From Candidatus Staskawiczbacteria bacterium (GTDB taxonomy: Bacteria; Patescibacteriota; Minisyncoccia; Minisyncoccales; Staskawiczbacteraceae): a DNA stretch of 64,000 nt. The notes beneath the pieces are model-generated. The model did not search any database and was not told the origin of the DNA. It saw only the letters and a program-made list of their open reading frames with translations. How positions within the stretch are numbered: position 1 is the stretch's first letter; each line of letters starts with the position of its first letter. The translations under genes and the position numbers were made by a program. The DNA lies in the NCBI GenBank assembly GCA_026395175.1, contig JAPLZF010000017.1:12017-76016 (forward strand), in the 5' to 3' direction. This document shows positions 1-59,754 of the stretch, one piece after another.

Positions 1-873
1 CTGATGAGGATTGTCAGCAGTAGGCAAGTCAAGATTGGCTGTGCAAGGCAAGCTGTCTGTTCCGCCATCTGAGCCTTGGCATGTCCAAGTCCAGGGACCA
101 GAGCCGGAAACATTGGATGATGCGCCGGTCAAACAAAGGTTGCTGGTTGGAGCAAAAGAAACAATTGAACCATTGGCAGAACCGCAAACGCCGTTTATTT
201 TTGGAAGAAAAGAGAAAGTGGTTGCCACTTTATAATTGGAACTTAAACAAACGCTTTCGCCGTTTGCCCCTCCTTCCAAACAATTGAAAGTTCCCCAGCC
301 GACTACGGCTTGGTTAAGCGCTGAATCCGAGCTGGCAGAACTGCCTCCCCAAGTCCAGTAATGGAATTGAGACGGAGAACCGCTTGCATCTATCCAAAGA
401 TTCGGCAATTTTAGCCAGCCGTCCCATCCGCCTCTGTTTGAGCTTAACGTTCCGCTGCATCCTGATTGAAAAACAGAGCAGGCTCGCACCCAGCCGTTAA
501 TTGGATAACTTGCAGATAAAATTACTTGCGAGGAATAGCATGGCGTAGTTGGATATCCGCAACCAGGATAGGCGGTCAAATCGGGAGCCGGGTCAAATTT
601 AATCCAGCCGATGTTTTCTGACCAAGCATAGCCGGTGATGTCGCCATTTGTTTCAATGTTTGCTCCGTAATCAACATTTCCTCCGCCAGCCGGAATGCCA
701 GCCAGCCCAAGATTGTTAAAACTTATCCAGCCAATGTTTGATGTCCAAGCCCAGCCATAAACATTTCCGCTGGCTTTTATTTCGTTTGCCGGGAAAAAAG
801 AAAAAGCAAAAACTATTACAGCCAAAAATAATATAATTTTTATTTTGTTAAAATTTTTCTTTTTTTCCGGCAT
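1..873 (-). CDS. Secreted Trp/Cys-repeat protein, partial (C-terminus lies beyond window start)
   Basis: Hand translation: the ATG at 873 (complement) stays open for 291 codons to base 1. It is absent from the ORF track because there is no stop in the window. N-terminal signal/anchor MPEKKKNFNKIKIILFLAVIVFAFSFF. Repeats GWAWTSNIGWISF and GYAWSENIGWIKF. Cys-rich module NGVCGSANGS...GSGPWTWTCQGSDGG. Confidence 0.75.
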   Translation of the reverse strand, partial: MPEKKKNFNKIKIILFLAVIVFAFSFFPANEIKASGNVYGWAWTSNIGWISFNNLGLAGIPAGGGNVDYGANIETNGDITGYAWSENIGWIKFDPAPDLTAYPGCGYPTTPCYSSQVILSASYPINGWVRACSVFQSGCSGTLSSNRGGWDGWLKLPNLWIDASGSPSQFHYWTWGGSSASSDSALNQAVVGWGTFNCLEGGANGESVCLSSNYKVATTFSFLPKINGVCGSANGSIVSFAPTSNLCLTGASSNVSGSGPWTWTCQGSDGGTDSLPCTANLDLPTADNPHQ

Positions 874-896
874 AAAAATAAAATTATTGGTTATGA

Positions 897-1755
897 TTAT
901 TGTTGTGACACTGCAATTCCATAAGGATGGTTTCCCACATTATATGTTCCTATTATGATTCCCGAGGAATTAAGTTTTGTAACAGTATTCCCATTGAAAT
1001 TACCAACCCAGACATTTCCAGAAGCGTCAGCTGTAATTCTGTAAAGAGTATTCGCAATATGGTATGTTCCTACTGCGTTTCCCGACGAGTTAAGTTTTAT
1101 AACATTGTTATCACTATTAGTAACCCAAACATTTCCGGAAGAATCAGTTGCAACGCCAGAAGGATTATTTCCCACATCATATGTTCCTATTGTGTTTCCC
1201 GAGGAGCTAAGTTTTGTAACGGTGCCATCTAATCGATTAGCAACCCAGACATTTCCAGAAGCATCAACTGCAACTCCATAAGTTTCGTTCCCTGCCGAAT
1301 ATGTTCCTACCACACTTCCTGCGGAGTTAAGTTTTGTAACAGTATTACCATTTAAACTGCCAACCCAAACATTCCCCGAAGAATCAGTTGCAACTTGCCA
1401 AGTTAAACTTCCCACATTATATGTTCCTATTGTTGCTCCTGTTGAGCCATTAAGTTTTATAACTTTATTTCCGCCCGAACTGGCAACCCAGACATTTCCT
1501 GAAGAATCAGTTGCAATACCAGAAGGATAATATCCTCCTAAACTATATGTTCCCACCACGCTTCCTGAGGAGTTAAGTTTTGTAACAGTGCCATCCATCC
1601 AATTGCCAACCCAGACATTTCCTGAAGAATCAACCGCAACTCCATCAGGATTGTTTCCCACAGGATATGTTCCTAATAAATTTCCGTTTGAACCATCAAG
1701 TTTTGTAACAGTATTATCGCTAAAATTGGCAACCCAGACAAAAATTGAACTTGGA
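897..1755 (-). repeat. C-terminal array of about 7 tandem ~126-nt (42-aa) NHL-like blade repeats
   Basis: I counted seven VTKL/VIKL-centred units by eye between IFVWVANFSDNTVTKL and the C-terminus. Confidence 0.7.
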
Positions 1756-4700
1756 GTTGCAGGCGGAGTTGCAGGCGGAGAGGCAGAACCAGTTGAGCAT
1801 TCTTTCAATGCCTTGGTTCCAGAATTGGTTTGAATTCTTATTCCGGAATCATTTGGGTCTCCCGGATTTACCAAAACCACGCCCCAAATTCCTGAATTTT
1901 CTTTAATTCTTAAAGGAGAAGTTGCAGTTCCCGGAGCTTGGCCTGCAATATGAACTGATTCAGAACCATTCCAAATGCGAAGTCCGCTGTCAGCGCAAAG
2001 AGGCGCTTGAAGAGTGGCAGCGCAAGCAGTGCTATTTCCGCATGACCATGTTGTTGTCGGAGTATTTGTTGTCGGGAAAGTTGGAGTAAATCCTTTGTTA
2101 AAATATTGCAAAGCAAACCCTGTAAAGTCTCCAAAGGAATAAGGTCCTTTTCCTACTGAATATGTTCCTAATCTGCTTCCCGATGAATCAAGTTTTGTAA
2201 CAGTGCGTCCGCCGTTGTTGCCCGCGCCCGAATTGGCAACCCAAACATTTCCATAAGCGTCAACCGCAACTCCGTAAGGATTGTTGCCAAAAGCGCCGAC
2301 TCCTGAAGAATATGTCCCTATCACATTTCCTAATGAATTAAGTTCTGTGACAGTATTATCATCAAAATTAGCAACCCAGACATTTCCTGAAGAATCAACC
2401 GCAATCCCGCGAGGATTATTTCCTACTGGATATGTTCCCAACACATTTCCCGACGAATCAAGCTTTGTGACGCTGTTACTGCCCGCATTGGCAACCCAGA
2501 CATTCCCATAAGCATTAACCGCAATTCCATAGGGATTATTTCCTACAGAAGATATTGCTATAATTGCTCCAGTGGAGCTGTTTAGTTTTGTGACGCTGTT
2601 CCCTCCGCTGTCTGTAACCCAAGCATTCCCGGAAGGGTCAACTGCAATTCCGTAAGCGCCACTTTCTACAGAATATGGGCTTCCTGAATATTGGGTTCCG
2701 TCTGAGTGAAGTTTTGTGACATTATTTCCGCCGGAATTGGCAACCCAAACATTCCCGGCTTCATCAATTGCAATTCCGCGTGGGCCATATCCCACATTAT
2801 ATGTTCCTATTGTGTTTCCCGAGGAGTCAAGTTTTGTGACGCTGTTACCGCCATTATTGGCAACCCAGACATTCCCGGAAGCATCAACCGCAACTTCTTG
2901 GGGATTATTTCCCACATTATATGTTCCAATCACATTTCCGTTTGAAATATTAAGTTTTGTGACGGTATTGTCTCCGGAATTGGCAATCCAAATGTAAGGA
3001 TTAGAAATGGAAACAGGATTTCCGTGGTTGCAGAAGTTTCCTGTGAAAGCAGTAGAACCGGCTGTATAATTTTTAGCCGCCGAACCGCAAGCGTCGGGGC
3101 AAGATATGCTATAATTTTGATGAAGCTGAAGGGTTTCGTAGTAGTTTCCTTCCACAGCGTGAAGATCTAATGTAAAGTTAATAGTGCCAGTGTCGGCAAC
3201 AGGGACCAAAAAAGGCAGGGCTGAACGATCAAAAGTCATGATGCTTTCCGTCGTATGATCAGGAGTAGCAAATGTGTGAATACAATTTTGTCCTAAGCCC
3301 GGAGAAGAGAGGCAAAAATTATAAGATAAATTCTCACAGCCATGCCCTACAGCTGATACTTGCAAATATCCTTGGCTTCCGCAAGTTAATGTGTCTACGG
3401 GACTATTTACGAACACATTAGTAATAATTGCGAAAGTAGTATTAGCTGAGTAAGTCTCGCTGTCTAAGCATGTGTTGCCTACACATTCCATTGCTTCTGC
3501 TTTTCCTGCTTTGCTTATAAAAAAGAAAGCTGTGGCTAAAACAATTAAAATAATAATCAAAATTGCCAGCAGGATTTTTCTTTTGAGAAGTTTTTTTATA
3601 AAAATAATGCCAACAAAAAGTATCAGGACAAAAATAACTGCAAGAATTATTCTTAGAGAGAAATAATCTCTTGCGTCCATTTTGTCGGATTGCTTTGCAT
3701 AGTCAGAAGAAAGGTTTGTTTTGTAGGAAGCCAAAGTTTTACCATCTTTTGACGCGGTTATTTCTGCCCTCATTGCTAAGGCATTTGCCAGGGCTTTTAC
3801 AGAAATGGTTTTTGTGTATCCAGCATTGAAATCTGTCTTGTCTGAATAATTGGCAACAAGCTTGTTGTTTTGGTTGAATATTTTAACATTTAAGTCCGCT
3901 GGTCCTCCGCCGGAAACTTTATTGGTCATAATGTCAGTCGGACTGCCGGCATAATTTATAGTTATGTTTAATGTTTGTCCTTCTGCAATGCTCGATTTGT
4001 CGCTGGCAACAGAATCTATGGTAACAATATCGCCCCCAATTATATATCTGAAATTAACCGTAGTGGCTCTTTTTACATTATTGCTGTCTAAAAATGATAT
4101 TTCGCCAACATACACTTGAGGCGCGTAATTGAAAGCGGGCAAGTCTATGGAAATTTTTGATTCTGCATTTGGATTTATTGTTATTGTTTTGTCTTTGAAA
4201 GATGAAAGTATGTTATTCGGTTCCGGTCTTTTGTAAATATTTACAGAAGGAGTGATGGTAATTTTGTCTGCGGTATTATTTTCTAAAACAACATTCAAAA
4301 CAGCTTTCTGGCCGGCATAAATTGTCGGGCCTTCCTGAACATTGAAAGCAGTGTCTCCCACATAAACGCCGGCGCTTTTAATTTCTGCCATTCCGGTTCC
4401 ACCGGCAATATTGAGCATTGCATCGTCCCAGCCCATAGAACTGCCATTGTCAAGCATTGCCACAACTTCTATCCCAAGATTGGCTCCGCTTATTGACTCT
4501 GGAATTTTGTATGTAAAATTGACAACTTTTTTCTCGTTTCCAGCCAAAAAAATCGGGCCGTACATTATTGAGTTGTCATATTGCTTTTGAGGAATAGTGT
4601 TTTTATAATTTCCCATTAGAAACACTTCATAGCGAACATTCGGAACGCTCAGGTTTTTTGCATTCCAAAGAGTGAAAGTTCCGGTAACGGTTTCACCTGC

Positions 4701-4859
4701 CCTGTAATCTGTTTTTGAAAGTTTGAGGTCTTTTACATAAACCTCTATTGGGTTTACAATCACCAAAGCATTTGCTTTTGAATTTGCCGACAAAAACGTT
4801 GCAAAACAAAACAGGCAAAAAATTATGAAAACAGATACCTTTTTTTTATTCAACAGCAT
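897..4859 (-). CDS. Giant surface protein (1320 aa): signal peptide, Ig/CARDB-like N-terminal region, central TM hairpin, two NHL-type beta-propeller arrays
   Basis: Single ORF. N-terminal signal VSVFIIFCLFCFATFLSANSKANA. Two adjacent hydrophobic helices near aa 400-452. Fourteen ~42-aa repeats of the form GNVWVAN..N.VTKL...G..(I/V)GTY.VG..P.G(I/V)A(V/T)D. Confidence 0.85.
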   Translation of the reverse strand: MLLNKKKVSVFIIFCLFCFATFLSANSKANALVIVNPIEVYVKDLKLSKTDYRAGETVTGTFTLWNAKNLSVPNVRYEVFLMGNYKNTIPQKQYDNSIMYGPIFLAGNEKKVVNFTYKIPESISGANLGIEVVAMLDNGSSMGWDDAMLNIAGGTGMAEIKSAGVYVGDTAFNVQEGPTIYAGQKAVLNVVLENNTADKITITPSVNIYKRPEPNNILSSFKDKTITINPNAESKISIDLPAFNYAPQVYVGEISFLDSNNVKRATTVNFRYIIGGDIVTIDSVASDKSSIAEGQTLNITINYAGSPTDIMTNKVSGGGPADLNVKIFNQNNKLVANYSDKTDFNAGYTKTISVKALANALAMRAEITASKDGKTLASYKTNLSSDYAKQSDKMDARDYFSLRIILAVIFVLILFVGIIFIKKLLKRKILLAILIIILIVLATAFFFISKAGKAEAMECVGNTCLDSETYSANTTFAIITNVFVNSPVDTLTCGSQGYLQVSAVGHGCENLSYNFCLSSPGLGQNCIHTFATPDHTTESIMTFDRSALPFLVPVADTGTINFTLDLHAVEGNYYETLQLHQNYSISCPDACGSAAKNYTAGSTAFTGNFCNHGNPVSISNPYIWIANSGDNTVTKLNISNGNVIGTYNVGNNPQEVAVDASGNVWVANNGGNSVTKLDSSGNTIGTYNVGYGPRGIAIDEAGNVWVANSGGNNVTKLHSDGTQYSGSPYSVESGAYGIAVDPSGNAWVTDSGGNSVTKLNSSTGAIIAISSVGNNPYGIAVNAYGNVWVANAGSNSVTKLDSSGNVLGTYPVGNNPRGIAVDSSGNVWVANFDDNTVTELNSLGNVIGTYSSGVGAFGNNPYGVAVDAYGNVWVANSGAGNNGGRTVTKLDSSGSRLGTYSVGKGPYSFGDFTGFALQYFNKGFTPTFPTTNTPTTTWSCGNSTACAATLQAPLCADSGLRIWNGSESVHIAGQAPGTATSPLRIKENSGIWGVVLVNPGDPNDSGIRIQTNSGTKALKECSTGSASPPATPPATPSSIFVWVANFSDNTVTKLDGSNGNLLGTYPVGNNPDGVAVDSSGNVWVGNWMDGTVTKLNSSGSVVGTYSLGGYYPSGIATDSSGNVWVASSGGNKVIKLNGSTGATIGTYNVGSLTWQVATDSSGNVWVGSLNGNTVTKLNSAGSVVGTYSAGNETYGVAVDASGNVWVANRLDGTVTKLSSSGNTIGTYDVGNNPSGVATDSSGNVWVTNSDNNVIKLNSSGNAVGTYHIANTLYRITADASGNVWVGNFNGNTVTKLNSSGIIIGTYNVGNHPYGIAVSQQ
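2135..3005 (-). repeat. First array of about 7 tandem ~126-nt NHL-like blade repeats
   Basis: Seven VTKL/VTEL-centred units from NPYIWIANSGDNTVTKL to RTVTKLDSSGSRLGTYSVG. A Cys-rich insert and a PPATPPATP linker (1756-2134) separate this array from the second one. Confidence 0.7.
3492..3660 (-). other. Central transmembrane hairpin inside the 1320-aa protein
   Basis: FSLRIILAVIFVLILFVGIIFI, then KKLLKRK, then ILLAILIIILIVLATAFFFISKAGKAEA. This reads as an anchor-like helix, a basic loop, and a signal-peptide-like helix ending in AEA directly before Met457 (codon at 3491-3489). Confidence 0.7.
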
Positions 4860-4867
4860 TTTTTTAT

Positions 4868-6106
4868 TTAAGGATTAATGTCGGTTCTTAACCACAATTG
4901 GCCTGTGGCAGGGCTGGATGGGTCTGACCCATTTCTTGTTTCTATAATTAAACCGCCGGTTGTTTTGGTCAGTCCGCCGACTATTTCAAGTTTTGTTGCC
5001 GGAGTTGCTGTTCCAATTCCAACATTGCCGAAATTTACTGCATTGTGTCCTTCGGCGTTGTCGCCAGCACCAAGCGTGTCGGACAATGTGTCTATGAGAT
5101 TTCCTGTTCCGCTACCAGATGCGTCTGCCCCGCAAATAATATTTCCGCTTGCATCTGTCCACAGCTTATTGTTGCTGGTGGTTCCATTGCAAATAAGGCT
5201 GGTTTTAATTCCGCTTGTTCCGTTGCCGGTATAAATTTCCAGTTTTGCTGATGGCGTTGCTGTTCCAATTCCAACATTGACTGCAAAACCGCCGGTTCCG
5301 CCCAGCACGAGCATATTAGAACCGCCAACTTTAGCATAGTAGCCAATTGCCGTAGCATTGGTGAGGTTGCTCGATAAAACATCAGCGTTGTTGCCAATTG
5401 CCGTGTTATTGCTGCCTGTGGTGTTTGATTGAAGGGAATAATAACCGCTGGCGGTGTTGCCATTGCCTGCGGTGTTGGCGCTAAGAGAGAAAAAACCATC
5501 GGCGGTGTTGTTGGAACCAGTGGTATTGTAATAGAGAGCGCTTTGGCCGTCGGCGATGTTTTGATGTCCTGTGGTGTTGGAAAAGAGAGCATTTTTGCCA
5601 TTGGCGGTGTTTTCCCAACCTGTGGTGTTGGAGAAAAGGGCCTGGTAGCCGTTGGCGGTGTTTTCTGAACCGGTGGTGTTGGAATGCAGAGCCTGATAAC
5701 CAATTGCCAAACTGGTTTTTGCGTCGTCAAAAAAATTGATTAAATCAGCAACCTGCAAAAGGTTATTGGGAGTTGCTGTTCCAATTCCAACTTTGCCCAA
5801 AGGAATAAGCAAAGCATTTACTGCTCCTCCTGTGTTTAATATGGCTCCGCCGGTAGAACCAATAGTTCCTTCTATGTCTAATGTGGTGCCCAAAGTTCCA
5901 TTTCCTCCTATACTCAACGTTCCCAGCTTATATTGTCCTGCACTGCTGACATTCAAGGGAGCAGGGGCATTGTTTCCCGGTGGCGCGGCTGTTGGATTTT
6001 GCCAAGCGGCAAAAGAAACAGAAACAAGCGCAAAGCAGAGAACCGAAATGCTGAAAACCAGATAAGCTGATTTTGCTAATGAAATTTTTTTGTTATTTTT
6101 TTTCAT
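4868..6106 (-). CDS. Secreted fibre/adhesin-like protein (412 aa) with Asn/Thr/Gly repeats
   Basis: N-terminal signal anchor. Six tandem ~17-aa repeats (SNTTGxxNTAxGxxALF). Three copies of VGIGTATPxxxLE(I/V), a motif I associate with phage tail-fibre and trimeric-adhesin proteins. Confidence 0.75.
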   Translation of the reverse strand: MKKNNKKISLAKSAYLVFSISVLCFALVSVSFAAWQNPTAAPPGNNAPAPLNVSSAGQYKLGTLSIGGNGTLGTTLDIEGTIGSTGGAILNTGGAVNALLIPLGKVGIGTATPNNLLQVADLINFFDDAKTSLAIGYQALHSNTTGSENTANGYQALFSNTTGWENTANGKNALFSNTTGHQNIADGQSALYYNTTGSNNTADGFFSLSANTAGNGNTASGYYSLQSNTTGSNNTAIGNNADVLSSNLTNATAIGYYAKVGGSNMLVLGGTGGFAVNVGIGTATPSAKLEIYTGNGTSGIKTSLICNGTTSNNKLWTDASGNIICGADASGSGTGNLIDTLSDTLGAGDNAEGHNAVNFGNVGIGTATPATKLEIVGGLTKTTGGLIIETRNGSDPSSPATGQLWLRTDINP

Positions 6107-6133
6107 ATTTTTATATTTATAATTTTAATATTT

Positions 6134-6442
6134 TTATTTTGGAGCGCTTAAACTTTTTAAAATATCTTCAGAAATTTTTGTCTGCTTTTGATTTTCAGAA
6201 GGAGCGGATAAATTTTTTATAACTTCTTTTAAAACAGGTTGCGGCGTTTCTTTGCTTTCGGGAGCTGAGAGAGATTTTATTATTTCTTCTTTGGTCAGTT
6301 TTTCTTCAGGAGTTTTTGTTTTTGCATTTTTGTTTGAAAAGTAAAAAAACAGCCCGCCAAAAATAAGCAGAGCTATAATTAAAATTGCTCCTACTAATAG
6401 AAGAAGCTTTCTATTTGACCCAATTGATCCGATAGTTTCCAT
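6134..6442 (-). CDS. Small membrane-anchored protein with three (I/L)K(S/N)LSAP repeats
   Basis: TM helix LLLLVGAILIIALLIFGGLFFYF followed by the repeats IKSLSAPESK, IKNLSAPSEN and LKSLSAPK. First gene of the minus-strand surface operon. Confidence 0.6.
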   Translation of the reverse strand: METIGSIGSNRKLLLLVGAILIIALLIFGGLFFYFSNKNAKTKTPEEKLTKEEIIKSLSAPESKETPQPVLKEVIKNLSAPSENQKQTKISEDILKSLSAPK

Positions 6443-6610
6443 TTAGTTATTTTACCTTATTTTTTTATTGCAAGCAAAAGGTCAAGGGTGTGGATAACTT
6501 CGAGGATTCGCTTTAGCGAAGCCGAGACACTGAGCCGTAAGGCGAAGTGCTAGTTGCAAAAAACAATTGCTTGTGTTAAACTGAAAAAGTATAGTTTTAA
6601 TATAAAAAAT

Positions 6611-9673: not shown

Positions 9674-9991
9674 ATGGCAAAAGATAATGACAAAGAGTTT
9701 CTTGAGTACATTGTCAAAGAGTTAGTTGATAATCCTAAAGACGTCAAAGTTGAAAGAAAAGATGACGAAATGGGAGTATTGCTTTCATTGAAAGTTAACC
9801 CGGAAGACATGGGCCAAATCATTGGACGAGAAGGATCAACAGCCAAGGCAATCAGGAACTTAGTCCGAATTGTTGGACTTAAGAACCACGCCAGAGTGAA
9901 CCTCAAAATTGAGGAACCGGAAGGCGGACGTGCTCCAAGACCTGAAAGAACAGCAGTTTCTTCAGACGACATCGACAACATTTCTCTGTAA
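9674..9991 (+). CDS. khpA: KH-domain RNA-binding protein (KhpA/YlqC-like)
   Basis: KH GxxG loop in GQIIGREGSTAKAIRNLV. Sits between rpsP and trmD, as in the conserved rpsP cluster. Confidence 0.8.
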   Translation: MAKDNDKEFLEYIVKELVDNPKDVKVERKDDEMGVLLSLKVNPEDMGQIIGREGSTAKAIRNLVRIVGLKNHARVNLKIEEPEGGRAPRPERTAVSSDDIDNISL

Positions 9992-10040
9992 CCTGCCCGT
10001 CTAAATGCGCGAAGCGTTTTTGTCGGGTTTTACAGAAAGC

Positions 10041-10076: not shown

Positions 10077-10093
10077 ATCGCTCGGCAGAAAAT

Positions 10094-27452: not shown

Positions 27453-27950
27453 ATGGCATTAACAAAAATACAAAAAACAAAGCAAATAGACAGCATAAAA
27501 GAAAAGCTTTCAAACCAAAAATCAATAGTTTTTGTTGATTTTAACAAAGTTCCTTCAAAGGAAATGTTTTCCTTGAGAAAAACCTTAAAAGAAGCCGGTT
27601 GCAATTTGAAAATTGCCAAAAAAACATTGGTAAGAGTTGCTTTTGGGCAATCAAACATTTCTTACTGGAATAAAATAAAGTCCAGCATTCCAGGACAATT
27701 GGCACTGGTTTTTGGAGTTGAAGATGAAATTGCCCCGGCAAGAATTGCCAACCAGTTTGCAAAAACTCAGGAAAATCTGAAAATTTTGGGAGGAATTTTT
27801 GAGAACAGATTTATAGACAGAGAAAAAGTATTAGTGTTGGCGAATATACCGCCAAGAAACGAATTATTGGGCAGATTGGTTGGCTCTATTTATAGTCCAG
27901 TTACAAGTTTTGTGAGAGTTTTAAATAAAATAAGTGAAAAAAATAACTAA
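27453..27950 (+). CDS. rplJ: 50S ribosomal protein L10
   Basis: MALTKIQKTKQIDSIKEKLSNQKSIVFVDFNKVPSKEMFSLRKTLKEAG. The start was trimmed from 27420 to the ATG at 27453. Confidence 0.9.
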   Translation: MALTKIQKTKQIDSIKEKLSNQKSIVFVDFNKVPSKEMFSLRKTLKEAGCNLKIAKKTLVRVAFGQSNISYWNKIKSSIPGQLALVFGVEDEIAPARIANQFAKTQENLKILGGIFENRFIDREKVLVLANIPPRNELLGRLVGSIYSPVTSFVRVLNKISEKNN

Positions 27951-27958
27951 TTAAATTT

Positions 27959-28031
27959 CGCTTGGCAATCAAATTTTTTTTCGCTAAGTCCTCGCTTCGC
28001 TGCGGAGCTCAAAAAAATTTATTGCCTCGCT
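27959..28031 (+). repeat. 73-nt palindromic intergenic element, copy 1 (12 nt before the rplL ATG)
   Basis: cgctTggcaatcaaattttttttcgctaagtcctcgcttcgctgcggagctcaaaaaaatttattgcctcgct. Differs from copies 2 and 3 at one base. Confidence 0.9.
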
Positions 28032-28043
28032 ACATTAAATATT

Positions 28044-28439
28044 ATGACAGACGACACAAAAGTTCCAGCTAAATTTGAAAAATTAGTTGGCGAGATAGAA
28101 AAAATGCCAGTTGTAGAATTGGCAGAATTAGTAAAAGTCTTAGAAGAAAAATTTGGCGTTTCGGCAGCAGCTCCAGTTGCAGTAGCAGCCGCCACCGCAG
28201 GACCTGTTGAGGAAAAAACATCTTTCAGTGTTGAATTGAAAGAAGTTGGAGCTCAGAAAATTGAAGTCATTAAAGTTGTTAGAGATGTTACTGCAAAAGG
28301 ATTGAAGGAATCAAAAGACCTGGTTGACGCAGCAGCAGCCGGCACCGCGCAAATGATTAAAGAAGACGTCAAAAAAGAAGAAGCCGATGAAATTGTAAAG
28401 AAATTTACAGCCGCCGGCGCCAAAGTGGAGATAAAATAA
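28044..28439 (+). CDS. rplL: 50S ribosomal protein L7/L12
   Basis: Ala-rich hinge [14 protein letters not shown] and C-terminal domain [24 protein letters not shown]...GAKVEIK. Confidence 0.92.
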
Positions 28440-28443
28440 CAAT

Positions 28444-28482
28444 AAAAAACAGCCCATTCGATTAACTCAGGGCTGTTTTTTT
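28444..28482 (+). terminator. Bidirectional-type terminator hairpin, repeated in inverted orientation at 36499-36537
   Basis: aaaaaacagccc / gggctgtttttt stem around the 14-nt loop attcgattaactca. Confidence 0.8.
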
Positions 28483-28509
28483 ATTACAAAAGTGATAAAA
28501 TTGTTTAAT

Positions 28510-34794: not shown

Positions 34795-36500
34795 AAAGGC
34801 ATATTGATTGGCGAATAATCATAATTTTAATTTTGATTTTTATTATTGGGGCAGCTATTATTGGCCGCCTATTTTTTCTGCAGATTTTGGAGCGCAAACT
34901 TTTCGAGGCTCAGGCTTTAGGCCAGCAGATGGATTTTAATAATGTTGTCGGTTCGAGAGGTCAGATTTTATGCGCAGGTTCGCAGGAAACCAAAGAAAAA
35001 AGTCTGGCAATAAATAAAGACAGCTGGACAATTTCTGTGAACCCGAAAGACATCAAAGACAAGCCGGCTTTTGCGGAAGCGTTGAGCAAAGCTATAAGCC
35101 AGACAAAAGAACAGATAATTTCAGAATTGGAAAGCGCGGATTCTTATGTTGTCATACAAAAAAATTTGCCGTCTGATGATTATAACAAGATTAAAGCGCT
35201 GAATCTTAAAGGATTGTCTTTTGAAAATATTCCGCAAAGATTTTATCCGCAAGGACAAATGCTGTCTCAGGTTTTGGGGTTTTTAGGAGGGCAGGGCTCG
35301 GGGCAATATGGAGTTGAAGGCTATTATGAGGATGTTTTGAAAGGCAAATCCGGAGTTACAGAAGAATCATCGGGAATAAATTTTCTTTTTTCAAATGACA
35401 GCCAAATTTCTTTGAACGGTTCGGATGTTTATTTGACGATTGATTATAATATACAATTTCAGGCGGAACAATTGCTTGTAGCCGAACAGAAGAAGGACGG
35501 CATAGACGCGGGCCAGATAATTGTTATGAAGCCCGACACCGGAAAAATTTTGGCTTTGGCAAATTTTCCTAATTTTGACCCAAATAATTATTCCAAAGAA
35601 AAAGATTTGGGAATTTTCCAAAATTCAGCGGTGCAAAAACTTTTTGAGCCGGGTTCCATAATGAAATCGTTTACAATGGCGGCCGCTTTAAACGAAGGAA
35701 AAATAACTCCCGACACGACTTATGTGGATACCGGAACTGCAACATTCGGTTCCCAAACAATCCATAATTTTGCAAACGAAGTCTACGGCAAGCAGACGAT
35801 GACTCAGGTTTTGGAAAGCTCAATTAACACCGGAGCTGTTTTTGCCGAACAGCAAATTCCGCACAAAATATTTTTTGATTATATTGACAAATTCGGTTTC
35901 AATGAAAAAACAGGAATTGATTTACAGGGAGAAGTTTATTCGCGCAATGACTTGCTTAAAAACGGGCCGGACATTGAATTTGCCACAGCTGCTTTTGGCC
36001 AGGGAATTGAATTGACTCCCATGCAAATTGCCGTGGGTTATTGCGCCATTGCCAATGGAGGAAAATTGGTTAAGCCATATATAGTTGAAAAAATTGCCAA
36101 TGGAAAAGATGCAACTTATACAAAGCCGAATGTTTCCCAGCCAATTGTTTCGCAACAAACTATTACGCAATTAAATTCAATGTTAATCAATGTTGTTGAT
36201 AAGGGTTTTAACGGCGTTGCCAAAATTCCGGGTTATTATTTTGCCGGCAAAACAGGCACAGCTCAAATTCCTCTTAAAAACGGGAAAGGATATATGCCAG
36301 ACAACAACACAATCCAAAGTTTTGTGGCTTACGGCCCGGCTTTTAACCCGCAATTTTTAATATTGGTAAAATTGGACAATCCAAAGGTTCCAAAGTCATC
36401 TCTTTCAGCTGTTCCTGTTTATAAGCAACTGGCGCAGTATATAATCAATTATTGGCAAATCCCGCCCGACTACGATGCAAATGCTAAACCAACAAATTAA
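34791..36500 (+). CDS. ftsI: Penicillin-binding protein / peptidoglycan D,D-transpeptidase FtsI
   Basis: N-terminal TM and transpeptidase motifs SIMK (SxxK), SIN (SxN) and KTGTA. Confidence 0.88.
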   Translation: MKRHIDWRIIIILILIFIIGAAIIGRLFFLQILERKLFEAQALGQQMDFNNVVGSRGQILCAGSQETKEKSLAINKDSWTISVNPKDIKDKPAFAEALSKAISQTKEQIISELESADSYVVIQKNLPSDDYNKIKALNLKGLSFENIPQRFYPQGQMLSQVLGFLGGQGSGQYGVEGYYEDVLKGKSGVTEESSGINFLFSNDSQISLNGSDVYLTIDYNIQFQAEQLLVAEQKKDGIDAGQIIVMKPDTGKILALANFPNFDPNNYSKEKDLGIFQNSAVQKLFEPGSIMKSFTMAAALNEGKITPDTTYVDTGTATFGSQTIHNFANEVYGKQTMTQVLESSINTGAVFAEQQIPHKIFFDYIDKFGFNEKTGIDLQGEVYSRNDLLKNGPDIEFATAAFGQGIELTPMQIAVGYCAIANGGKLVKPYIVEKIANGKDATYTKPNVSQPIVSQQTITQLNSMLINVVDKGFNGVAKIPGYYFAGKTGTAQIPLKNGKGYMPDNNTIQSFVAYGPAFNPQFLILVKLDNPKVPKSSLSAVPVYKQLAQYIINYWQIPPDYDANAKPTN

Positions 36501-36537
36501 AAAACAGCCCTGAGTTTATCGAATGGGCTGTTTTTTA
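36499..36537. terminator. Bidirectional terminator hairpin (inverted copy of 28444-28482) serving convergent ftsI and tRNA-Glu
   Basis: aaaaacagccc / gggctgttttt stem. The loop tgagtttatcgaat is the reverse complement of the other copy's loop with 1 mismatch. Confidence 0.8.
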
Positions 36538-36540
36538 TTG

Positions 36541-36615
36541 TGGCCCCAACCAGATTTGAACTGGTGTTACTTGCTTGAGAAGCAAATGTCCTAGACCAGG
36601 CTAGACGATGGGGCC
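36541..36615 (-). tRNA. tRNA-Glu (CTC)
   Basis: The reverse complement folds with acceptor ggcccca/tggggcc, anticodon stem tttgc/gcaag with loop ttCTCaa, and T-stem accag/ctggt. Confidence 0.88.
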
Positions 36616-37812: not shown

Positions 37813-38775
37813 ATGGTTATTGAAATTACAATATTTTTAGCATCGTGTTTCGTTCTGTCGTGGCTCAGCTCGAAATTCATCAAAACTCTTACGGAAGTTG
37901 CCAAATATTTAGGCTGGAAAGAATTTATTGTCGCTTTTTTCGTGATGGGTTTTGCCGCTTCTCTGCCGAATTTATTTGTTGATTTGAACGCAGCTTTCCG
38001 CGGACTTCAGCAAATTTCCTTCGGAGACATTATGGGCGGAAATTTAATCGATTTGTCGCTTTCCATGGCAATAGTGGTTTTATTTAGCGGCAGTTTTGTT
38101 TCCACTGAAAGCAAAACAGTGCAGAGCAGCGCTGTTTTCACAACAATGATTGCTTTTTTGCCGTGGATTTTGGTGCTGAGGACAGGAGGATTGGACAGGT
38201 TGGACGGAGTGATATTGATTGCAGCATTTTTTATTTATGCTTTCTGGCTTTTTTCAAACGACGACAGGTTTAGGAAAGTTTACAGGAATAAAAAATTAAA
38301 AGATATCACGAAAAAATCCACTTTGATATGGGACTTAATTAAAATAATTGCCATACTCGCCATGCTTTTGGCGGCTTCTTACGCCGTAGTTTACACTGCC
38401 CAATATTTTGCCGCGACCATGAATGTTTCTCTGGCACTGGTCGGAGTTTTGATTGTTGCTTTGGGAAATTGCTTTCCCGAAATATATTTTGGAGTTATTT
38501 CCGCCAGGAAAAAAGAAAATTGGATGGTTTTGGGAGATATGATGGCTTCTGTGATTGTCTGCGCAACTCTTGTTTTGGGAATTGTCGCTCTTGTTGCGCC
38601 GTTTAAAATAAATGATTTTTCTCCGTTTCTGATAGCCAGGATTTTTATGGTGATAGCCTGCGCGCTTTATTTTTTCTTCATTGCCTCGGATAAAAAAATA
38701 ACCAAAAAAGAAGGATTGCTACTGCTTTTTGTATATGTTGCATTTTTGCTGACAGAAATATTTTTGCCTCGTTAA
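37813..38775 (+). CDS. Ca2+/cation antiporter (CaCA, YrbG-like)
   Basis: Alpha-repeat-like motifs GFAASLPNLFVDL and ALGNCFPEIYFGVIS. About 10 TM. Confidence 0.7.
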   Translation: MVIEITIFLASCFVLSWLSSKFIKTLTEVAKYLGWKEFIVAFFVMGFAASLPNLFVDLNAAFRGLQQISFGDIMGGNLIDLSLSMAIVVLFSGSFVSTESKTVQSSAVFTTMIAFLPWILVLRTGGLDRLDGVILIAAFFIYAFWLFSNDDRFRKVYRNKKLKDITKKSTLIWDLIKIIAILAMLLAASYAVVYTAQYFAATMNVSLALVGVLIVALGNCFPEIYFGVISARKKENWMVLGDMMASVIVCATLVLGIVALVAPFKINDFSPFLIARIFMVIACALYFFFIASDKKITKKEGLLLLFVYVAFLLTEIFLPR

Positions 38776-43185: not shown

Positions 43186-43240
43186 AGTGGGATATAATAA
43201 CAAATGGTTGAATATAGTAACAAGAATATATAAGGAACAT

Positions 43241-43280
43241 ACCGGTAGCGTTTTTGCCTCCAGGCAAAAACGCTACCGGT
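43241..43280 (+). repeat. Perfect 18-bp-stem palindrome, copy 1 (upstream of PaaX-like gene 1)
   Basis: accggtagcgtttttgcc tcca ggcaaaaacgctaccggt. Confidence 0.9.
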
Positions 43281-43328
43281 AACATTAAATTCTTTTGTTG
43301 TGATATAATAGAAATATATAATAAAGAT

Positions 43329-43883: not shown

Positions 43884-43889
43884 TTTGTG

Positions 43890-43933
43890 ATACTGGTAGC
43901 GTTTTTGCCTCCAGCCAAAAACGCTACCAGTAT
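43890..43933 (+). repeat. 18-bp-stem palindrome, copy 2 (downstream of PaaX-like gene 1)
   Basis: atactggtagcgtttttg cctccagc caaaaacgctaccagtat. Shares the core ggtagcgtttttgcctccag.caaaaacgctacc with copy 1. Confidence 0.9.
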
Positions 43934-43950
43934 ACCAGTAATATATTGGG

Positions 43951-44050
43951 TTTAGTTTAGTTTAGTTTAGTTTAGTTTAGTTTAGTTTAGTTTAGTTTAG
44001 TTTAGTTTAGTTTAGTTTAGTTTAGTTTAGTTTAGTTTAGTTTAGTTTAG
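43951..44050 (+). repeat. Pentanucleotide microsatellite (TTTAG)x20
   Basis: I counted 100 nt of perfect tttag units. Degenerate T/G-rich sequence follows to about 44100. Intergenic, upstream of rmuC. Confidence 0.95.
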
Positions 44051-44112
44051 TATTGTTCTGTTGTTTCTTGGTAAATTTTGCGTTGGGTTTAGTTTTGAGG
44101 TAGAATAATATT

Positions 44113-45132
44113 ATGGACATTACAACAATACTTTTAATTGTAATTGCGGTGGGGGTGGTGACGGCGATTTTTTTGTTGGTTGTGCGGAGAAGTCCTTCGA
44201 CGGGCTCAGGACAAAAGCAAGACGATAACTCGTTCTTGCTTTTGCATCAGCAGATAAATCAAATTGCGCAGGCAGTTGATTCAAAGTTGTCCGAGTCAAA
44301 TAAAAATGTTCAGGAGCAATTTAAGCATTCAGCCGACATTATTAGAAATGTTACCGAAAAATTAACCAAGCTGGACGAAACAAACAGGCAAGTGGTTGGG
44401 TTTGCCGACCAGTTGAAAGGCTTGCAGGACATTTTGAAAAATCCAAAACAGCGGGGGATTTTGGGCGAATATTATTTGGAAACTGTTTTAAAAAATGTTT
44501 TACCGCCGGGTTCTTACCAAATGCAATATGGGTTTTCAAACGGAGAAATTGTTGACGCGGTTGTTTTTGTGGACAAAAGAATAATTCCAATTGACTCAAA
44601 ATTTTCTTTAGATAACTACAACCGAATGCTTCAGACAAATGACCCTTTAGAGAAAAAAAGACTTGAAACAGCTTTTGTTAATGATTTAAAATTAAGAATT
44701 GATGAAACCTCAAAATATGTACGGCCAGAAGAAAAAACAATGGATTTTGCTTTTATGTTTATTCCGTCTGAAGCTGTTTATTATGACTTGCTGATAAACA
44801 AAGTGGGAGTTGTTTCTGAAGACACAAATAATTTAATTTATTATGCCGGCAAGAAAAAAGTTATTGTTGTTTCGCCAACTTCATTTTTGGCATATTTGCA
44901 GACGGTTTTGCAGGGGCTGAGAAATCAAAAAATTTCAGACCAGGCGCAGACAATAATTAAAGAAGTTGAAAGGCTGGGCAAACATTTGTTTACGTATTCA
45001 GAACATTTTAACCGGCTGGGCACGCATTTGGAAGCAACAACAAGCAGCTTTAACAAGGCAAAAGTTGAATTTGGCAAAATTGACAAAGACGTTGTAAAAC
45101 TTACGGGCAGCAACCCAACGCTTGACGAATAA
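44113..45132 (+). CDS. rmuC: DNA recombination protein RmuC
   Basis: N-terminal TM, coiled coil, GILGEYYLETVLKNVLP...VDAVVFVDKRIIPIDSKFSLDNY and FMFIPSEAVY. The -10 tagaat (44101-44106) ends 6 nt before the ATG, so the mRNA may be leaderless. Confidence 0.8.
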   Translation: MDITTILLIVIAVGVVTAIFLLVVRRSPSTGSGQKQDDNSFLLLHQQINQIAQAVDSKLSESNKNVQEQFKHSADIIRNVTEKLTKLDETNRQVVGFADQLKGLQDILKNPKQRGILGEYYLETVLKNVLPPGSYQMQYGFSNGEIVDAVVFVDKRIIPIDSKFSLDNYNRMLQTNDPLEKKRLETAFVNDLKLRIDETSKYVRPEEKTMDFAFMFIPSEAVYYDLLINKVGVVSEDTNNLIYYAGKKKVIVVSPTSFLAYLQTVLQGLRNQKISDQAQTIIKEVERLGKHLFTYSEHFNRLGTHLEATTSSFNKAKVEFGKIDKDVVKLTGSNPTLDE

Positions 45133-45160
45133 GCCATTTTTTGCTAAACTATATCTATTA

Positions 45161-45233
45161 CGCTCGGCAATCAAATTTTTTTTCGCTAAGTCCTCGCTTC
45201 GCTGCGGAGCTCAAAAAAATTTATTGCCTCGCT
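45161..45233 (+). repeat. 73-nt palindromic intergenic element, copy 2 (9 nt before the rplU ATG)
   Basis: Identical to copy 3 and 1 nt different from copy 1. Confidence 0.9.
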
Positions 45234-59290: not shown

Positions 59291-59677
59291 ATGGCAGACG
59301 ATAAAAATGAAGAAAATATAGTTCCCGAAAAAAGAGTTTCTCCTCCAGAAGAAGCCGGGCATTTTGATTGGAAGCAGGAGAAGGGAATTGAAAAAAAAGA
59401 AATTTCGCCGGATGATGAAAGAGTTTCAAAAGAGTTGAGACAGGAAATAGAAAAAATGGAACTTGATGACAATGCAAAAGCTGAAGCGGAAAAAAAAGCT
59501 CAAAAAATTGAATTTTTGGGCGAAAAAGAAAAAATCGAGCATCTTTTGCAGATGGCGCGCGAAAAAGGAGTGGTTTTTGCAATTCAGGTTGCCAGAAGAA
59601 TGAACGAGCCGTATCTTTTGGATATTTTACACGACACTTTGGCGCAGGAAGGATTTTACAAAGATTTTACAAAATAA
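59291..59677 (+). CDS. Hypothetical charged 128-aa protein
   Basis: Glu/Lys-rich N-terminal half and conserved-looking C-terminus GVVFAIQVARRMNEPYLLDILHDTLA. Confidence 0.5.
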   Translation: MADDKNEENIVPEKRVSPPEEAGHFDWKQEKGIEKKEISPDDERVSKELRQEIEKMELDDNAKAEAEKKAQKIEFLGEKEKIEHLLQMAREKGVVFAIQVARRMNEPYLLDILHDTLAQEGFYKDFTK

Positions 59678-59681
59678 ATAT

Positions 59682-59754
59682 CGCTCGGCAATCAAATTTT
59701 TTTTCGCTAAGTCCTCGCTTCGCTGCGGAGCTCAAAAAAATTTATTGCCTCGCT
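59682..59754 (+). repeat. 73-nt palindromic intergenic element, copy 3 (11 nt before the ATG at 59766)
   Basis: Identical to copy 2. Confidence 0.9.

Follow-up and report, generated by a model that had tools for sequence, protein, structure and literature searches.

A sense-biased modular palindromic repeat, mostly placed between co-directional genes, in Candidatus Staskawiczbacteria and related Parcubacteria

The 73-nt palindrome that occurs three times in the window (the whole stretch of DNA that was analysed, 64,000 nt of a Candidatus Staskawiczbacteria contig) is one genome-specific subfamily of a large superfamily present in Candidatus Staskawiczbacteria and related Parcubacteria. We propose, with a probability of roughly 0.7, that the element is a non-autonomous palindromic interspersed repeat of the REP/MITE/RPE-like kind, which spreads or is homogenised in genomes and is co-transcribed as a hairpin. 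The unit consists of CGCTC, paired A/T-rich inverted-repeat arms of 16 bp with a single bulge, a core hairpin that is GC-rich and variable, and TCGCT; there are many copies per genome, and these are near-identical inside one genome. Since the element lies within transcription units, it is expected to be co-transcribed as a sense-strand stem-loop. No description of the repeat family was found in the literature searched, and we consider it probable that it represents a previously undescribed, sense-biased and modular palindromic repeat superfamily of Parcubacteria.

The three copies in the window are all on the + strand (Table 1). From GGCAAT to ATTGCC their 63-nt bodies are the same, and 0 of 100 shuffles of the window produced a match. 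Copy 1 deviates from copies 2 and 3 at base 5 only (CGCTT instead of CGCTC); an earlier note on this DNA, made from the letters alone, had reported the positions and a one-base difference in copy 1. The spacing that it gave to the downstream ATG, 12, 9 and 11 nt before rplL, rplU and the VirD4-like gene, was also confirmed. Its description of the element as lying just after the previous stop holds for copies 1 and 3 (8 and 4 nt) but not for the rmuC|rplU copy, where the co-directional upstream stop is 28 nt away. By Pfam, the flanking genes encode L10|L7/L12, RmuC|L21 and an unknown 128-aa protein followed by a T4SS coupling-protein-like ATPase. When folded as + strand RNA, the element forms two GC pairs, a 2x2 loop, the 6-bp GGCAAU:AUUGCC helix, a bulged C and a 10-bp A/U helix, and the GC-rich core forms its own small hairpin inside the A/U stem. 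The fold energy of -22 kcal/mol (z = -3.6) supports the approximately 16-bp A/U-rich stem with a bulged C around a GC-rich core that the earlier note had proposed. The 16-nt imperfect inverted arm pair (GGCAATCAAATTTTTT / AAAAAATTTATTGCC) constitutes terminal inverted repeats. In an Rfam 15 scan no family fitted the element; only tRNAs reached the gathering score, and the best sub-threshold matches were chance miRNA and lncRNA models with E >= 0.7.

Table 1. Coordinates of the element copies, the parts of copy 2 and associated features in the window.
Feature	Position	Strand	Context
Copy 1	27959..28031	+	rplJ (stop 27948-27950) / rplL (ATG 28044); CGCTT variant at 5' end
Copy 2	45161..45233	+	rmuC (stop 45130-45132) / rplU (ATG 45243)
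Copy 3	59682..59754	+	128-aa ORF (stop 59675-59677) / VirD4-like gene (ATG 59766)
Copy 2, left end motif CGCTC	45161-45165	+	
Copy 2, GGCAAT	45166-45171	+	
Copy 2, bulged C	45172	+	
Copy 2, AAATTTTTTTT	45173-45183	+	
Copy 2, GC-rich core	45184-45212	+	
Copy 2, AAAAAAATTTATTGCC	45213-45228	+	
Copy 2, right end motif TCGCT	45229-45233	+	
Extended -10-like TGCTAAACT	45142..45150	+	10 nt upstream of copy 2; kept in L039 and L065
Possible decayed left end CGCTCGGCAG	10079..10088	+	5 nt before trmD ATG; compare left-arm-only copy in L061
Possible decayed right arm AAATATTTTTGCCTCGTT	38756..38773	+	overlaps Na/Ca-exchanger stop; 8 nt before P-type ATPase ATG

A pattern in which both arms were fixed and the core was left free was run on metagenomes and returned 63 more stretches, from low-GC Parcubacteria in aquifer and groundwater samples, so that the search for related copies recommended by the earlier note did yield a family. 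The GC content of all loci is 29-41%. A Candidatus Staskawiczbacteria MAG has a protein that matches the RplL of the window at 100% identity, and the lineage is Parcubacteria/Patescibacteria. Conservation of the arms in the metagenome set is partly by construction, the pattern requiring exact arms; the outer five positions next to the arms, which the pattern did not cover, read CGCTC in 46/63 and TCGCT in 51/63. Where these end bases change they do so as pairs (CACTC..TCGTT, CGCTA..TAGCT). The possibility that the CGCT ends are a target duplication was rejected, since the ends covary as pairs and the empty orthologous sites are without CGCT. The cores fall into several types of 20-60 nt, and the core type of the window was found again only in L038. 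A core 20-mer gave only chance matches against 185,579 species genomes (in GC-rich Actinomycetota and similar), which means that the window core is common to no species representative. The element was without a match in viral, plasmid and phage collections, and a protein-database search with the concatenated element-encoded peptide gave none at E<=1. Arm variants with compensatory changes (GGCAGT/ACTGCC, AGCAAT/ATTGCT, GAATTTTTT/AAAAAATTC, CTTTTT/AAAAAG), taken near exact copies or at sites picked via RplL homology, indicate that the arms do vary across the lineage. In L104-L107, contigs like Staskawiczbacteria RIFOXYD1_FULL_39_28, the rplJ|rplL spacer (approximately 9925-10000) holds an unrelated palindrome (GGGTATAG...CTAAACCC repeats) instead of the element.

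Placement was assessed with a covariance model from the largest subfamily, which was applied to 0.53 Mb (the window together with all loci) and combined with the pattern matches; copy 1 scored 62.3 bits on the + strand and 28.4 on the - strand. The resulting census comprises 77 distinct copies, with L042 moved by hand into the coding class. A stop and a start, both co-directional and no more than 30 nt away, flank 56 sense copies, while 4 sense copies adjoin a start only, 4 adjoin a stop only and 5 lie in frame within an ORF; 5-6 are antisense or in a mixed context and 2-3 are unclassified. Across the 77 copies this amounts to a sense:antisense ratio of about 68:5. The upstream stop is 0-8 nt away in 42/55 cases (exact-arm subset), and the downstream start is 6-26 nt away for all sense copies, mostly 7-15 nt. 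Ribosomal proteins account for 17/51 downstream genes (L21, L7/L12, L15, L11, L16, L24, S7, S11, S18). Many of the others encode EF-G, RbfA, Map, SecY, Adk, GroEL and DnaJ, and there are also genes for LemA, HIT, aldolase, NifU and membrane proteins. According to the earlier note, random orientation and position relative to genes would mark the element as a plain mobile repeat; with about 68 sense against about 5 antisense copies, the family is not a plain random repeat by that standard.

The usual co-directional spacers in the window genome are 4-22 nt, and therefore any surviving intergenic insert must be a few bases from both codons. The antisense copies (L094, L040/L067, L097, L073-8776) likewise abut a stop and lie 5-11 nt from a start, and since they occupy spacers of the same sort, position reflects tolerance of the insert whatever the orientation. 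Placement is thus largely what a compact genome with such spacers imposes on a tolerated insertion. The sense bias of about 68:5 is nevertheless real, and tolerance alone is insufficient to account for it. In the window the + strand is both G-rich (leading) and coding, so that replication and transcription are confounded there. The few loci that are informative on this point disagree: the L073-8776 copy stays on the DNA strand of its neighbour although the orientation of the genes is reversed, L053 carries one copy in either direction, both of them sense to their respective host genes, and the L094 copy is antisense to genes syntenic with the window + strand.

One strand of the element shows conserved folding. 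The largest subfamily comprises 34 distinct sequences, and 100% of the cells of its apical 7-bp helix are paired, with compensatory change in 5/7 apical pairs (46 cells). The apical covariation score was reached by no shuffle, and slid controls fell to 35-52% paired. The wobbles in this helix are 4 G.U vs 0 A.C, and since G.U is present and A.C absent, it is the sense strand that folds.

Syntenic relatives, which share 74% (L073) to 86% (L064) identity with the window in the flanking genes, provided four filled/empty orthologous site pairs, at VirD4, a 208-aa gene, rplJ|rplL and the rplL 3'UTR. The VirD4 site is filled in the window and reads TAA-ATTAA-ATG (5 nt) in L073; conversely, the 208-aa gene is preceded by a copy in L073 but not in the window. 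The rplJ|rplL site is filled in the window, L074, L078 and L101-103 and is a 12-nt spacer in L064; L064 carries a copy between the rplL stop and the terminator, in the 3'UTR, without a start codon after it. Three genomes have the rmuC|rplU site occupied, and the core type found there is in every case the one specific to the genome, which implies homogenisation or re-insertion within genomes. The three copies of the window are identical in body at unrelated loci, and vertical conservation of such copies is impossible. Decay is also evident: there are intergenic core-less minis of 41-42 nt (L070, L080) before map and another gene, left-arm-only copies in L061, one of them before an aldolase gene, a 12-nt footprint (TCGCTTGCTCGC) in L108 and an arms-only copy within MnmA (L110). 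In 63 copies, examined at offsets of 0-3 and for repeat lengths of 3-8, no direct repeat that could be a target-site duplication was found (best z 2.6, at most 1 exact match). The left flank is A/T-rich, with T at position -1 in 39/63 and no fixed tetramer. All copies seen are solitary, and no IS with the ends of the element was seen in 0.5 Mb of loci. The earlier note had favoured an intercistronic RNA element over a random MITE. The part of this claim that stands is the hairpin on the transcribed strand and the non-random placement (about 68 vs about 5); the filled and empty sites, the identical copies at unrelated loci and the 3'UTR, in-frame, decayed and antisense copies speak against the opposition to a mobile repeat.

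The window itself has no coding copy, but full-length copies are inserted in frame in the MnmA genes of L071, L042 and L052 and in a MiaB-family gene of L053. In L071 the 75-nt unit encodes 25 aa of the MnmA loop (GHYAR...KDQSYFL). The copies of L042 and L052 occupy this position too and have other cores, that of L042 with a length difference of 3 nt. The L053 copy lies in the linker between the UPF0004 and radical-SAM domains of the MiaB-family enzyme. The MnmA loop could be read in 112 of the best 120 homologues and was 12 aa (KNGKLLKGKDKE) in 47 and 17-54 aa in 65. Approximately 12 of the expanded loops read SLGNQIF...KNLLPRL and so correspond to the element, and more are arm variants or other palindromes. 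This loop (GHYAR/KDQSYFL, P0121-P0240) is an insertion hot spot, where different genomes also show at least four further types of peptide derived from repeats (RSATNFF...AKSLLPR, GREIPNPKSQIP, SSLRGRSVATDEAI..., SFASARRQRRLAQ...). At L053 10394-10406 a convergent miaA-like gene takes its TAA from the antisense strand of the right arm of the element (...AKQ*), which means that the repeat has remodelled the C-terminus of the miaA-like protein. Among RplL homologues, the public calls for P0072, P0098 and P0099 start with (M/L)PGNKLLKTKSLLPRLKN or ...KKSIASLNKN before the true Met; judging from the sequences, these extended starts appear to be an annotation artefact in which the call reads through a related element upstream.

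SD sequences are missing before nearly all genes of the window, where the leaders are A/T-only, which agrees with the view of the earlier note that the genome mostly lacks them. An SD motif (GGAGG-like, 5-10 nt before the start) is likewise absent after the element, the post-element spacers being A/T-only, and the motif of the element nearest to the ATG is CCUCGCU. None of the loci, which were checked for a 16S 3' end with an altered anti-SD, contains rRNA. Window promoters resemble extended -10 boxes (TGGTATAAT; TGGTATAGT/TATAAT) 20-30 nt before the ATG, a position that implies very short leaders. The window promoter scan found no promoter inside or after the element, and a plausible -10 box lies upstream only for the rplU, L073-4510 and L080-8822 copies. 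If the box upstream of copy 2, TGCTAAACT, is the rplU promoter, this copy would lie at the 5' end of the rplU leader and not intercistronic. TAAT-rich motifs to the left of the element were considered as -10 boxes and rejected, as they are the TAA stop codons of the upstream genes. No intrinsic terminator was called at the element. On both strands a T-run precedes and an A-run follows the core hairpin, and since this order is the reverse of a GC-rich stem followed by a U-tract, the element does not have the form of a terminator. The organism encodes a complete RNase III.

The main alternative is that the element is a host cis-regulatory RNA kept by selection in SD-less operons. A ribosome terminating 0-8 nt upstream might melt the 5' arm and free the A/U-rich 3' arm near the AUG, the hairpin might enhance or position initiation, or an RNase site or stabiliser might set cistron levels (L10 vs L7/L12, GroES vs GroEL, NusG vs L11). 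In its favour are the sense bias, the SD-like spacing of 6-26 nt to the ATG in 60/77 copies, the sense-strand covariation with G.U and without A.C, the enrichment before ribosomal-protein, chaperonin and EF-G genes, the combination of an SD-less genome with a full RNase III, the occupation of some sites in several related genomes, and the unrelated palindrome in the rplJ|rplL spacer of L104-L107, as if a hairpin were wanted there. Some of these observations tell against our repeat reading: the bias of about 68:5 is far stronger than that of REP, ERIC or Correia, and copies are enriched before highly expressed genes (17/51 ribosomal). Furthermore, rmuC|rplU and rplJ|rplL are occupied across genomes in which the coding DNA is 70-80% identical and the arms are identical, which could reflect purifying selection for a host function. 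From sequence, the element may have a regulatory part in translation coupling or in RNA processing, and its spacing and the highly translated genes agree with coupling or positioning, though no observation requires such a role. However, orthologous sites are empty without a substitute (L064 rplJ|rplL, 12 nt; L073 VirD4 site, 5 nt), copies also occur in the 3'UTR, inside ORFs and antisense in equivalent spacers, remnants that are halved or lack the core remain in front of genes, the functions of the downstream genes are mixed (LemA, HIT, aldolase, VirD4-like), and the lower stem, only 16 bp long and with a large internal loop, is ill suited as a canonical substrate of RNase III. The empty sites, remnants and coding copies argue against coupling or positioning as the primary explanation, and we regard a selected host RNA as unlikely. 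It is rather more doubtful still that a mobile hairpin has been domesticated as an intercistronic expression module of SD-less Parcubacteria, in which the conserved base helix (GC / GGCAAU:AUUGCC / GC), with its end 6-26 nt before the AUG, would sit at the SD:anti-SD position and serve ribosome positioning or reloading once translation has terminated 0-8 nt upstream, or specific endonuclease cleavage, with the cores co-evolving with a trans-acting partner.

A DDE-type MITE, with the 16-nt arms acting as TIRs bound by the transposase of a related IS and moved by cut-and-paste, would fit arms that are far more conserved than the interior and an element that is small, non-coding, present in many copies and polymorphic in its sites. 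Yet the family fails the definition of such a MITE: TIRs and insertion polymorphism are present, but a target-site duplication is absent at every offset and length tested. The CGCTC/TCGCT ends are not inverted copies of one another and covary as base pairs, the orientation bias is strongly to a single strand, the bulge and the G.U asymmetry point to a folded single strand, and the 0.5 Mb of loci hold no IS bearing the ends of the element; we consider this origin very unlikely. Least probable by far is a signal at the DNA level, be it a promoter, an intrinsic terminator, or a palindromic protein-binding or cruciform site. An intergenic palindrome with an A/T-rich tract beside TTGCCT, which resembles a -35 box, might suggest one, but extended -10 boxes (TGGTATAAT) are recognisable in the genome and none lies in or after the element, the T-run/A-run order is that of a reversed terminator and the scan calls none, the arm halves are 20-60 nt apart with a variable core between them, and the in-frame coding copies together with the wobble covariation indicate folding of a single strand.

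For the interspersed repeat that we favour, the copies would multiply by transposition, or by copy-and-convert between copies, through a strand-specific route. Single-strand mobilisation (HUH/Y1-type, REP/RAYT- or IS200/IS605-like) would fit better than DDE cut-and-paste, since there is no target duplication, one strand is folded and the CGCT ends are conserved and non-palindromic. An insertion would survive only where 6 nt or more of the native A/U-rich leader remain ahead of the ATG, and this may produce the SD-like spacing. Effects on expression, such as protection of the upstream cistron, RNase cleavage or coupling, would then be a by-product or a later exaptation.

Among known systems, REP/BIME and REPIN-RAYT elements are imperfect hairpins in transcribed extragenic DNA, with no target duplication and with species-specific variants, and REP sequences are thought to move as single-stranded hairpins via a Y1 HUH transposase. 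The element resembles them in lacking a target duplication and in having conserved non-palindromic bases at the hairpin foot. It differs in that the REP tag GTAG/CGTC is absent, the ends being CGCTC / TCGCT, in its A/T-rich rather than GC-rich stem, in its solitary copies as against the inverted pairs and clusters of REP, and in its near-single orientation to genes; without the tag, the family falls outside the definition of REP. IS200/IS605-derived elements also make no target duplication, are strand-specific and have folded hairpins with short cleavage motifs at both ends. The absence of duplication and the strand bias are shared with the element, but in IS200/IS605 elements the two subterminal hairpins differ from each other and insertion takes place 3' of a fixed 4-5-nt target, whereas here there is one hairpin and a left flank that is merely A/T-rich. 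MIRUs, in work attributed to Supply et al. in 1997, reportedly lie in operon spacers in the direction of the flanking genes and beside stop and start codons. They would be comparable as sense-oriented intercistronic repeats, but they are tandem direct repeats with small ORFs that overlap the neighbouring stop and start, and form no hairpin. ERIC/IRU and Correia (CREE) sequences are, like the element, conserved imperfect palindromes that are co-transcribed with the flanking genes; they differ in sitting in both orientations, and Correia also in its TA duplications, its IHF motifs and its promoter motifs. RNase III cleaves the RNA hairpin of Correia and RNase E that of ERIC, and the levels of the neighbouring cistrons change (PMC10969869). 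Palindromic elements inserted in frame and RNase-processed MITEs thus have precedents (PMC10969869). The RPE are short palindromes of a reduced genome that lie between genes and also in frame in housekeeping genes, where they are translated, their coding insertions falling at surface or linker positions of unrelated proteins (PMC10969869). The likeness is in the in-frame insertion with the ORF preserved, here in the MnmA loop and the MiaB linker. RPE are, however, approximately 100-150 nt, as against 41-96 nt for the Staskawiczbacteria element, which is mostly intercistronic, has a strong sense bias and a modular variable core; their hosts belong to an unrelated phylum, and it is by description that the element is set apart from them. 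By analogy, RPE, REP/REPIN and ERIC/Correia would be the closest relatives in kind, with MIRU as a possible precedent for sense intercistronic placement.

Bacteria of the candidate phyla radiation have genomes of <1 Mb that are assumed to be stripped of selfish DNA. Here, hairpin repeats riddle the most highly expressed operons (ribosomal proteins, groESL, EF-G) as well as tRNA-modification enzymes. They are an annotation hazard, as gene callers run ORFs through the element and some public RplL entries appear N-terminally extended, and they offer a ready marker of strain-level variation. They also present a natural experiment: a 70-nt stem-loop stands 10 nt ahead of a start codon in polycistronic mRNAs that lack SDs and either tolerate or exploit it. 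A mechanistic sense bias would suggest that insertion in this uncultivated phylum is into single strands and coupled to transcription or replication; a selective one would suggest a new kind of intercistronic signal.

The window contains further repeats. A pure (GTTTA)n tandem array of approximately 20 units lies at 43950-44054 between a PaaX-like gene and rmuC. Inverted repeats of 60 nt at 43225-43284 and 43888-43947 bracket a 209-aa ORF with a PaaX central Cas2-like domain, and each holds its own palindrome (ACCGGTAGCGTTTTTGCC..GGCAAAAACGCTACCGGT), belonging to a hairpin family distinct from the 73-nt element. A 47-nt terminator-like hairpin (AAAAAACAGCCC...GGGCTGTTTTTT) occurs at 28439-28485 and, inverted, at 36495-36541, the two being 96% complementary; one copy follows rplL and the other is beside tRNA-Glu. 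Positions 1-6550 of the window may be a replication origin or terminus region: gene orientation flips at approximately 6.45-6.55 kb and the GC skew changes sign between 4 and 8 kb. In the same region, a 1320-aa ORF (897-4859, - strand) is made up of repeats of approximately 120 nt (40 aa) in many diverged copies.
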